This document shows positions 4,697 to 6,103 of a stretch of DNA of 6,753 nt, one piece after another. Source of the DNA: a virus (Duplodnaviria > Heunggongvirae > Uroviricota > Caudoviricetes); IMG/VR virus record IMGVR_UViG_2684622669_000006, positions 1 through 6,753 of that record; one strand, written 5' to 3'. The notes beneath the pieces are model-generated. The model did not search any database and was not told where the DNA came from. It worked only from the letters and a program-made list of their open reading frames with translations. A program made the position numbers and the translations under genes. Every line of letters starts with the position of its first letter. Within the stretch, counting starts at the first letter, position 1.

Positions 4697-4900
4697 ATGC
4701 TAAAACAGCAAGATATGACAGAAACCGCCGCCGCAGTCCTTCATTTCTTACCTGCTGACAAGTGGGTAACGCCACGCATGATGACGAGAACTACCGGAGT
4801 AAGCGAAGCCCGGTGCCAGTTAATACTGACTCAGTTAGTTCTGGCGGGTCTGGCGAAGGATAACGGCGGGTACGGGAATAAATTCAGACGCTGCCAGTAA
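4697..4900 (+). CDS. Small hypothetical protein, possible winged-helix DNA-binding (67 aa; alternative start ATG 4673)
   Basis: SD AAGGG (4684-4688) 8 nt before ATG 4697. The product (MLKQQDMTETAAAVLHFLPADKWVTPRMMTRTTGVSEARCQLILTQLVLAGLAKDNGG) has a helix-turn-helix-like pattern. The DNA-binding assignment is inference. Confidence 0.45.
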   Translation: MLKQQDMTETAAAVLHFLPADKWVTPRMMTRTTGVSEARCQLILTQLVLAGLAKDNGGYGNKFRRCQ

Positions 4901-5050
4901 TGGCGGTTTCCTGCTGTGAAAATGGGCGGCTGGTGGGTGTTGGTAGCACCTGCCAGCCATTCGCTCATGCTTACTGGTCACAAGCGAACCACGGCCCACT
5001 GCTTTAGCGCAAAAGCAGAGTGAGCCTACCAGAGTTACGCTTACTGATCC

Positions 5051-6103
5051 ATGAAAAATACTGTAAAAATAAACAGTGTTGATTTAATCAACGCTGATTG
5101 CCTGCATTTTATTCAGTCCCTGCCTGATGATTCCATTGACCTGATTGTTACCGATCCGCCTTACTTCAAGGTGAAACCCAACGGTTGGGACAATCAGTGG
5201 AAAGGGGACGAAGATTACCTTAAGTGGCTGGACCACTGTCTGGCCCAGTTCTGGCGGGTGTTGAAACCTGCCGGAAGCCTTTACCTGTTCTGTGGGCATC
5301 GCCTGGCATCTGATATTGAGATCATGATGCGTGAACGTTTCAACGTGCTTAACCATATCATCTGGGCGAAGCCGTCCGGACGTTGGAATGGGTGTAATAA
5401 AGAAAGTCTGCGCGCATATTTTCCTGCCACAGAGCGCGTTCTGTTTGCTGAACATTACCAGGGGCCATATCGCGGCAAAAGTGACGGCTATGCGGCAAAA
5501 GAAAGGGAACTCAAACAGCACATAATGGCACCGCTGATATCGTATTTCAGGGATGCTCGTGCCGAACTGGGTATAACGGCAAAACAAATTGCCGAAGCCA
5601 CAGGTAAGAAAAATATGGTTTCCCACTGGTTTGGTGCCAGTCAGTGGCAGTTGCCGAATGAGGCTGACTATCGGAAGTTACAGGCACTGTTTTCCCGTAT
5701 AGCGGCAGAGAAGTTTCAGGAACAACAACTGGAACAACCACACCACCAGCTGGTGGCATCTTATGATTCACTGAATCGCAAATATTCTGAATTGCTGGAT
5801 GAGTTTAAATCTCTCCGGCGCTATTTCTCCGTATCAGTCTCCGTGCCTTATACCGATGTCTGGATGCATAAACCCGTTCAGTTCTACCCGGGTAAACATC
5901 CGTGTGAGAAACCGGCAGATATGCTCAGGCAAATAATCAATGCCAGTAGTCGACCTGGTGATCTGGTTGCTGATTTTTTTATGGGATCCGGTTCCACAAT
6001 AAAAGCAGCAATGGCGCTGGGGCGTCGGGCCTTAGGTGTTGAGCTTGAGTCAGAGCGGTTTAACCAGACAGTGAAAGAGATAAACGAGCTGGTGGGGAAA
6101 TAA
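5051..6103 (+). CDS. Orphan DNA methyltransferase, beta-class amino-MTase (likely N6-adenine), PF01555-like
   Basis: 350-aa product. Motif IV DPPY at aa 35-38 (nt 5153-5164) lies N-terminal to the AdoMet-binding motif I FFMGSGST near the C-terminus, which is the beta-class order. No restriction endonuclease gene is adjacent. Confidence 0.85.

Follow-up and report, generated by a model that had tools for sequence, protein, structure and literature searches.

A conserved structured leader RNA in front of an M.EcoGII-family DNA methyltransferase gene in the late operon of a lambdoid prophage

The methylase module and its enzyme

The 6753 nt window analysed here (positions 1–6753 of the IMG/VR virus record IMGVR_UViG_2684622669_000006) is the nin-to-lysis stretch of a lambdoid prophage, in which a run of genes on the + strand was recognized from the list of open reading frames (ORFs) and by profile searches. 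Between the late antiterminator gene Q and the holin gene lies a module with the gene for a DNA methyltransferase of 350 residues (5051–6103). It is preceded by a conserved structured leader RNA (4915–5050) and by a small ORF for a basic protein of 67 residues with a predicted winged-helix fold (4697–4900). All features are on the + strand unless stated otherwise. An initial annotation of this stretch, made from the sequence, had described the two genes as cargo bracketed by two intrinsic terminators, in the slot where Stx phages carry stx.

The methylase matches the Pfam family PF01555 (N6_N4_Mtase) over residues 29–341 (E = 2.2e-42; 145.9 bits against a cut-off of 26.7). Motif IV, DPPY (residues 35–38, nt 5153–5164), precedes motif I, FFMGSGST (residues 309–316, nt 5975–5998), which places the enzyme in the beta class. 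This agrees with the initial annotation (DPPY before FxGxG), and N6-adenine, also proposed there, is very probable as the target base. No endonuclease gene adjoins the methylase gene, either in the window or in the loci for which neighbours were listed; its neighbours there are the small ORF or Q on the upstream side and the holin gene on the downstream side. The methylase is an orphan, as had been claimed.

Assignment to the M.EcoGII family is based on PF01555 and on direct comparison. The window methylase is identical to M.EcoGII at 281 of 349 positions (81%) over the full length, with two gap positions, none of which falls into the central target-recognition region. The positions that differ (19%) are mostly in this region and the linker. 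Identity to Anc291, a tested ancestral variant, is 89%. The sequences used for M.EcoGII and Anc291 come from a machine reading of the supplement of PMC11551740, with a few misreadings. M.EcoGII and M.EcoGI are identical at 333 of 349 positions and are encoded by prophages of Escherichia coli O104:H4 C227-11 (Murray et al., 2018; PMC5778455). With the window methylase they share family, length and motif order, as well as the status of a prophage-borne orphan.

M.EcoGII methylates adenine in any context, and its close relative M.EcoGI is also non-specific (PMC5778455). Anc291 and deeper reconstructed ancestors are active on both DNA and RNA, and Anc291 and SUPREM show no discernible motif on RNA (PMC11551740). 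Because of these reports on close relatives, the target of the window methylase is probably any A. The target site had been left as an open question in the initial annotation, where the lack of a new methylated motif was named as a refuting result; such a result would be uninformative since the enzyme probably methylates any A. A site-specific enzyme, either Dam-like or with another motif, would have a narrower purpose, such as defence against a single restriction system or, as in P1, the control of replication or packaging. It would be in line with most phage orphan methylases, for example P1 and T4 Dam (2025 review), with the site-specific M.PflMI in the wider family (PMC11551740), and with the target-recognition region being the least conserved part of the methylase (identity 0.53–0.64 in 30 nt windows at 5461–5520 and 5701–5760). 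Nevertheless, we consider site specificity unlikely: at 81% identity the target-recognition region aligns with that of M.EcoGII without a gap, the enzyme is even closer to Anc291, whose deeper relatives are active without a motif on RNA, and REBASE-based typing lists homologues of M.EcoGI/GII (similarity about 93%) as nonspecific.

M.EcoGI and M.EcoGII are not expressed in the lysogen, and clones expressing them constitutively are slow-growing and unstable (PMC5778455). Homologues of M.EcoGI/GII gave no methylation signal in O111 Shiga toxin-producing E. coli, and a review from 2025 describes the enzyme as silent in lysogens and toxic if artificially expressed, likening it to Mu Mom. On these grounds the epigenetic role in the lysogen that had been offered as an alternative is unlikely.

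According to megablast, 40 phage records and 2242 of the 5426 complete E. coli genomes (about 40%) contain the region, and 1060 of these genomes have near full-length copies of it. Module DNA is 95–99% identical to the window in SfV (orf47-orf48), mEp460, the cdtI phage and Ayreon, and about 89% identical in Stx2c phages. In the former group the pair is annotated as hypothetical protein plus DNA methylase, in the same order as in the window: Q, terminator, small ORF, methylase, terminator, holin. The records of SfV and phage Ayreon annotate terminators at both equivalent places; together with those of mEp460 and the cdtI phage, they have for years made the gene pair, its position and the two terminators publicly known. 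The Q and holin modules surrounding the pair differ, and the small ORF of SfV is a 64-residue variant. In Stx2c phages, genes for tRNA-Met and tRNA-Arg, stx2AB and further genes are inserted between methylase and holin (the stx2 B subunit was confirmed by translation). The same pair is therefore found in these phages between Q and the tRNA and stx2AB genes, which bears out the comparison with the stx slot.

A conserved structured RNA upstream of the methylase start codon

The stop codon of the small ORF and the methylase ATG are 149–150 nt apart in five loci from E. coli, Kosakonia, Klebsiella and a metagenome contig. Positions 4915–5050 have a mean pairwise identity of 0.85; the values for second and third codon positions of the methylase gene are 0.87 and 0.47, and the leader is conserved beyond the adjoining coding DNA. 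BLAST searches placed it right in front of the methylase ATG in genomes of some twenty genera (about 45 loci), and it also precedes the ATG directly in more than 50 viral contigs. It is almost unchanged in about one-fifth of the complete E. coli genomes, and diverged copies are spread across many Enterobacterales genera and a Vibrio plasmid.

A covariance model (R1) was built from 37 copies and a hand-drawn structure. It scores 163.5 bits on the + strand of the window versus about 17 bits on the − strand. Diverging copies, with scores down to 25–60 bits, were found with it in genomes and viral contigs before methylases that are only 56–60% identical. Helix P1 consists of three segments, P1a (4922–4927/4963–4968), P1b (4928–4933/4953–4958) and P1c (4934–4939/4947–4952). 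The closing helix P2 pairs GGUCA (4976–4980) with UGAUC (5045–5049). It encloses P3 (AAGC 4982–4985 with GCUU 5039–5042), P4 (GGCCCAC 4993–4999 with GUGAGCC 5020–5026) and P5 (GCUUU 5001–5005 with AAAGC 5012–5016).

The helices are supported by covariation. In 64 aligned copies, taken from many genera, 34 of the 40 pairs show compensatory change (23.6 ± 1.8 in shuffles), and the number of cells changed on both sides is 303 (90 ± 8 in shuffles), a value reached by none of 500 shuffles. The covariation score is 0.39 and falls to 0.05–0.07 with the 3′ partner slid by 1–3 columns. For example, GGCUGG/CCAGCC in P1b is replaced by CGCGGG/CCCGCG, GCUUU/AAAGC in P5 by GCGAU/AUCGC and by GCUCUG/CAGAGC, and GGC/GCC in P4 by AGC/GCU. 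All five pairs of P2 show compensatory change, and 89% of its cells are paired. RNAalifold, applied to the same alignment without the hand-drawn structure, recovered P1, P4 and P5, with 17 of 22 pairs covarying. The minimum free energy of the leader is −61.6 kcal/mol (z = −2.87). When RNAalifold was applied to plain MAFFT alignments, close copies yielded little covariation, because the element hardly varies among them; the divergent copies found with the model were needed. The structure resides on the sense strand, as revealed by frequent G·U pairs and by the strand asymmetry of the model score. The region 4900–5050, which had been suggested for binding assays, is thus occupied by a conserved structured RNA and is not a DNA operator.

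Rfam 15 has no match in 4901–5050 at E values up to 1, and Rfam and tRNA scans of 4578–5050 found no element. No feature is annotated under the leader in RefSeq E. coli genomes (12 rows sampled across 1063 ranked records), and no match to three leader segments, as DNA and as RNA, was found in the library of papers searched. The leader RNA appears to be undescribed. In the published work on M.EcoGII as well as M.EcoGI, the upstream leader, the small ORF and the late-operon position are not described; the gene of locus L021, 95% identical to that of M.EcoGII, carries a leader RNA of the window type (127.7 bits).

Three further proposals for this region were discarded. A 34-codon ORF starting in a TAATG overlap (4901) has early stops in relatives, and loop-length differences there are not multiples of three. 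A pseudoknot between the apical loop of P1 (UGGUAG) and a conserved CUAYCA strand is perfect over 6–7 bp in the window, yet has no covariation support: in 52 distinct copies, complementarity is 3.53 within sequences versus 3.68 ± 0.11 between sequences. No second conserved fold of the leader emerged. G74-C126, considered as a fifth pair of P3, is unpaired in 38 of 63 copies.

Several copies seem to be degraded. In an Enterobacter genome (L071, 2361–2503, next to icd) the leader is followed by a methylase remnant without ATG, and the methylase on the Vibrio plasmid (L069, 2456–3519) is frameshifted. In Erwinia endophytica (L040) and Pantoea (L050) the methylase is kept and most of the leader is lost. 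The model also matches phage lambda (J02459, 45016–45139; L175, 1217–1340) with 29.8 bits (E = 5.5e-6). This match lies between tR′/orf-64 and gene S, about 47 nt before the start of S, where a methylase is absent. Hairpin P1 is fully preserved (GGCAGGAGGU/ACCUCCUGCC), and the motifs GGUCAC and AGCCU can still be recognized; P4 and P5 have disappeared. The lambda copy is either the remnant of a methylase module that has been lost or a functional variant.

No Shine–Dalgarno motif is present within 18 nt of the methylase ATG in any enterobacterial copy, the sequence before the start being GCUUACUGAUCYAUG. The 3′ strand of P2, UGAUC, occupies positions −7 to −3 relative to the start codon. The 3′ end of 16S rRNA contains GAUCA, which is complementary to UGAUC. 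As the spacing of UGAUC would also suit initiation at the methylase AUG, the 5′ arm of P2 looks like a mimic of the anti-Shine–Dalgarno sequence. The leader has the structural features of a cis-regulatory mRNA leader, namely a covarying fold, a fixed position and a helix that occludes the initiation region. Judged by this geometry and by the covariation, it most likely restrains or gates translation of the methylase.

A terminator-like hairpin (GCUGCCAGUAAUGGCGGU, free energy −9.9) spans the stop codon of the small ORF and is followed by a U-rich tail (4890–4914). According to ViennaRNA predictions for 61 loci, a hairpin with T-rich tail is located not more than 55 nt upstream of the leader in 49. 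In nearly all it ends 2–10 nt before the leader, and the stem sequences differ among loci. In loci without the small ORF, a terminator-like hairpin usually abuts the leader; in L028 it comes after a Q gene and is probably tR′.

Distant methylases of the M.EcoGII family (38–57% identity; Acinetobacter, Vibrio, Shewanella) are each preceded by an ORF for a zinc-ribbon protein similar to Com of phage Mu (L073, 2326–2514; L064, 2350–2526; L069, 2332–2445; L063, about 2440–2529). The L073 ORF matches PF10122 with 48 bits, those of L064 and L069 below the cut-off. In L069 the leader RNA is upstream of the Com-like ORF, whose AUG sits in the 3′ arm of P2, and the copies of L140 and L161 look like it in the fitted alignment. 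A weaker leader match (12 bits) is found upstream of the Com-like ORF in L073. The occurrence of a Com-like ORF between leader and methylase in distant relatives supports translational control in this methylase family.

The com-mom operon of phage Mu offers a parallel. Mom, too, modifies adenine promiscuously; it is toxic, is produced late and stays silent in the lysogen (2025 review). In the distant family members mentioned above, a genuine Com homologue is encoded upstream. Mom, however, is no methyltransferase, and the window has no Com gene of the PF10122 type; late transcription in Mu depends on the C activator and Dam, that of the window module on Q antitermination. Annotation and the Mu literature describe the mom start region as sequestered by RNA structure and subject to translational control. 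The leader model does not match the Mu com-mom region at E values up to 10. The layered control proposed here would function like that of Mu com-mom, though the two are unrelated.

More tentatively, the leader may represent a new class of switchable riboregulators that releases translation of the toxic methylase only when phage DNA is ready for packaging, with a degenerate copy in the late leader of lambda. Candidates for the signal would be the winged-helix protein acting like Com, the methylase itself binding its own leader or marking it with N6-methyladenine (m6A), and S-adenosylmethionine or S-adenosylhomocysteine.

The small winged-helix gene

The small ORF (4697–4900) belongs to phrog_331 (E = 4.6e-26), as revealed by the profile search that the initial annotation had called for. 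It has a Shine–Dalgarno-like AAGGGA 7 nt before the ATG. A longer reading of 75 residues from an ATG at 4673 was rejected, since it is not conserved in other genera. We detected 159 homologues; NCBI uses the name ‘TrmB family transcriptional regulator’ for relatives with an identity of about 50%. Conservation at the three codon positions is 0.66/0.71/0.45 across 24 loci. This coding signature, the phrog_331 membership and the homologues indicate that the small ORF is a real gene.

AlphaFold2, supplied with an alignment of 28 sequences, predicted the protein with a local distance difference score (pLDDT) of 88 and a template-modelling score (pTM) of 0.76 (helices 4–17, 26–33 and 37–49, strands 53–55 and 63–65). 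The model is that of a winged helix, H1-H2-H3 followed by a beta-hairpin wing, as had been supposed at the outset. All top matches in Foldseek are winged helices, and weak Pfam matches to TrmB, MarR_2 and DprA_WH recur among members of the family. The nearest folds are Zα domains (ADAR1, poxvirus E3L), with a TM score of 0.84 in both PDB (root mean square deviation, rmsd, 1.1–1.3 Å over about 65 residues) and the viral library BFVD (best match, rmsd 2.5 Å), although identity to the small protein is only 13–16%. The Z-form contacts of ADAR1, which we take to be N173, Y177, P192, P193 and W195, align by eye with Q41, T45, G60, N61 and F63. As this contact signature is not kept in the manual alignment, the designation as a Zα domain was rejected, and the predicted protein is classed as a winged helix only.

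The gene is present in 30 of the 45 genome loci that carry methylase and leader. Its absence from the other 15 shows that it is frequent but dispensable. It could encode an accessory nucleic-acid-binding partner that activates translation through contact with the leader or that binds DNA. Less probably, the small protein is the key regulator of the module, either as a transcriptional controller in the manner of the C proteins or as an RNA-binding translational activator that opens the leader, a Com analogue. The gene lies immediately upstream in two-thirds of the loci, at the near-constant distance given above in the five loci measured, and winged-helix-like ORFs are found upstream also in L061, L062 and L069. 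The recognition helix, RCQLILTQL, is invariant, as are the first eleven codons, and the remainder varies freely, with identity down to 50%, a pattern which has its parallel in the near-invariant leader. From its sequence, the protein has a net charge of about +4 and is thus basic, and its nearest folds, Zα and ribosomal winged helices, are binders of RNA or unusual duplexes. The regulator would, however, be missing from the 15 loci that have leader and methylase without the small gene, unless a copy elsewhere acted in trans. No sigma70 promoter for it to control was detected either.

The controller form of this proposal, which the initial annotation had put forward, is not supported. C-protein genes of Type II restriction–modification systems resemble the small gene in that a small protein with a DNA-binding fold is encoded just upstream of the modification gene. 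C proteins, in contrast, have an Xre-type helix–turn–helix (HTH), bind palindromic C-boxes and time an endonuclease, whereas the window has a winged-helix protein, no endonuclease and no C-box that we could find. Profile searches gave no HTH_3 match in the small protein, and no operator-like palindrome was found upstream of the small ORF.

The sole perfect inverted repeat, of 10 nt, pairs 4634–4643 with 4706–4715 (TATCTTGCTG/CAGCAAGATA) and encloses the Shine–Dalgarno-like sequence and the start codon. It may explain why codons 1–11 do not vary, synonymous sites included. In L141, L145, L160 and L062, the most divergent copies, CTTGCTG is kept and the repeat partner is not, so that the upstream CTTGCTG block may serve another purpose. 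The window contains exactly two copies of an 11 nt motif, ACMAGAGTTAY (by chance, 0.03 would be expected). One precedes the small ORF (4653–4663, 44 nt before the ATG), the other the methylase gene (5028–5038, 13 nt before the ATG). The core of the motif, CAGAGTTA, is kept upstream of the small ORF in most genera. The motif could be a shared protein-binding site, which would also suit a regulatory role of the small protein. A relationship between the small ORF and lambda orf-64 was rejected, the sequences being unrelated by eye.

A different role, by analogy with DpnI and HhiV4I, would be that the small protein reads or shields m6A-DNA and so protects phage DNA from m6A-dependent Type IV enzymes. 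The winged helices of both these enzymes sense m6A, such enzymes cut M.EcoGII-modified DNA, and the small gene is linked to a promiscuous m6A methylase. We regard this as very unlikely, because winged helices of the DpnI type are outside the best 50 fold matches and a third of the loci lack the gene.

Late transcription and proposed layered control of the methylase

The upstream boundary of the slot is the Q gene (3648–4469; PF03589, E = 2.1e-54), whose product is 273 residues long and has a sub-threshold match to a DnaJ-type CXXCXGXG zinc finger ahead of the Antiterm domain (30.4 versus a cut-off of 32.7 bits). Directly 3′ of the Q stop codon, a pR′-like late promoter with pause region (4475–4515) can be read from the sequence. 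A −35 element, TTGATT (4475–4480), is followed by 16 nt ending in TGG, an extended −10 motif, and by the −10 element TAAATT (4497–4502); TGCATCTAACGATGGG comes after TAAATT. AACGAT is at 4510–4515; this sequence corresponds to the sigma70-dependent pause signal of lambda where Q loads. At pR′, lambda reads TAAATTTGACTCAACGATGGG and the window TAAATTTGCATCTAACGATGGG; by this comparison the promoter and early transcribed region is lambda-like. The site scores 8/12 and was not flagged by a simple promoter scan.

The terminator scan identified tR′ as an intrinsic terminator at 4551–4577, with a stem of 7 pairs (4551–4570) and a T-run to about 4577. It would stop a pR′ transcript begun near 4510 at about 68 nt, unless Q is present. 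A weak Rfam match to Trp_leader at 4470–4577 (25 bits versus a gathering score of 41 bits, E = 0.09) is probably just the terminator. A short pR′-derived RNA, the regulatory small RNA StxS, is known in Stx phages (PMC7547250), and the predicted pR′ RNA of about 68 nt (4510–4577) in the lysogen is comparable to it.

A second intrinsic terminator lies between methylase and holin at 6110–6131 (GGCCACGTCAGGTGGCC and TTTTTATTT; stem 6110–6126, T-run to about 6131). Both terminators are therefore where they had been placed initially. Five terminator-like sites in the region compare with 2.4 ± 1.6 in shuffles, which alone is not significant. The downstream boundary is formed by a P21-type holin (6171–6386; PF04971, E = 3e-35) of 71 residues with an MKSM dual start. 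Its real start is at 6171, and a 71-residue holin is called at the equivalent place in related loci. The endolysin gene (6386–6753; phrog_7, E = 5.8e-43) is truncated by the end of the window. Q, pR′-like region, tR′, module, terminator and holin follow one another in this order, all on the same strand, and the order is retained beside Q genes of three different families and holins of at least three types.

The remaining genes of the window were assigned from the ORF list and by profile searches. They encode a DUF551 protein (47–577), a DUF968/HNH protein (2089–3270) and RusA (3271–3651). The C-terminal 66 residues of a 99-residue ORF (1914–2213) match phrog_1212 (E = 3.3e-37); this ORF overlaps the start of the listed DUF968/HNH gene. 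On the − strand, the nin region contains a toxin–antitoxin pair (714–1031 and 1024–1395). The RelE/HigB-like toxin (PF06296, E = 1.3e-46) has its domain starting at residue 49 of the listed ORF. It is followed, with an overlap of 8 nt, by an HTH_3 antitoxin-like protein, the toxin-first order being typical of higBA.

For the module itself, the sigma70 promoter scan gave only one weak site, which is within the small ORF. A lysogenic-conversion moron, transcribed from its own promoter in the lysogen and changing host expression epigenetically, would fit the slot, which holds stx and other morons. It would also fit a TTGCTG-N17-TAYNTG sequence upstream of the small ORF that is conserved in many genera and resembles a weak promoter. 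The −10 hexamer of this sequence is poor, though; it ends in G, and the scan finds no promoter there. Moreover, a terminator-like hairpin separates the small ORF from the methylase gene, and in published methylomes the enzymes are silent in lysogens, constitutive expression being harmful to the cell. A moron of this kind is highly improbable.

We propose that the gene encodes a late, Q-dependent anti-restriction methylase, the translation of which is also gated by the leader RNA; we put the probability of this reading at roughly two-thirds. In the lysogen, the methylase would be silent because constitutive pR′ transcripts halt at tR′, with two further terminator-like hairpins located downstream (about 4890–4914 and 6110–6131). 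Upon induction, Q would make RNA polymerase terminator-resistant, and small gene, leader, methylase and lysis genes would then be co-transcribed. The leader of about 135 nt is predicted to fold in two domains, with P2 covering positions −7 to −3 of a start without Shine–Dalgarno sequence and thereby holding down translation of a toxic enzyme. The enzyme, made late, would heavily methylate replicating and packaged phage DNA at N6 of adenine with little or no sequence preference, and DNA modified in this way would evade many of the adenine-sensitive restriction systems met in the next host. An anti-restriction role combined with late expression, as suggested by the initial annotation, is accordingly retained as the most likely function. 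The analysis itself shows the gene identities, the family membership, the synteny, the terminators, the conservation and covariation of the RNA and the lack of a Shine–Dalgarno sequence. Non-specific activity, silence in lysogens and harm from constitutive expression are taken over from reports on close relatives, and the anti-restriction role, the gating by P2 and any role of the winged-helix protein are inferred.

Several points weigh against this proposal. Non-specificity is deduced from 81% identity, and M.PflMI, the nearest characterized relative that is site-specific, shows that specificity can shift in the wider family (PMC11551740). To our knowledge, protection of phage DNA in vivo by enzymes of the M.EcoGII type is a proposal, made in the source paper on M.EcoGII (PMC5778455), and m6A-dependent Type IV enzymes would attack hypermethylated DNA more readily. 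Concerning the RNA, P3 is less supported than the other helices (73% of cells paired), and the alignment used for covariation was fitted to the model and thus favours the structure, a bias which the slid-partner control and RNAalifold lessen but do not remove. The U-rich tail of the hairpin at 4890–4914 is weak in the window, stronger in relatives. The leader could also be an element of RNA processing or stability.

The enzyme family has been characterized since 2018 (PMC5778455). The leader RNA, the most interesting feature of the locus, is apparently undescribed, as is the resulting picture of layered control, in which Q antitermination would be combined with successive terminators and with a start site sequestered by RNA structure. 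The leader is an unannotated RNA in a model organism, present neither in Rfam nor in the annotation of the RefSeq records sampled. M.EcoGII is in standard use as a reagent in chromatin footprinting and long-read methods, and the window shows the native setting of its family, in which a dangerous enzyme appears to be contained by Q-dependent late transcription, three terminator-like hairpins and a start without Shine–Dalgarno sequence buried in an RNA fold. If the leader gates translation, it would represent a second, independent answer to the problem solved by Com in phage Mu, namely that of using a promiscuous DNA-modifying enzyme without premature death of the host. The leader would then be a ready-made tight control element, and the module would be relevant to the passage of Stx and other lambdoid phages across restriction barriers.

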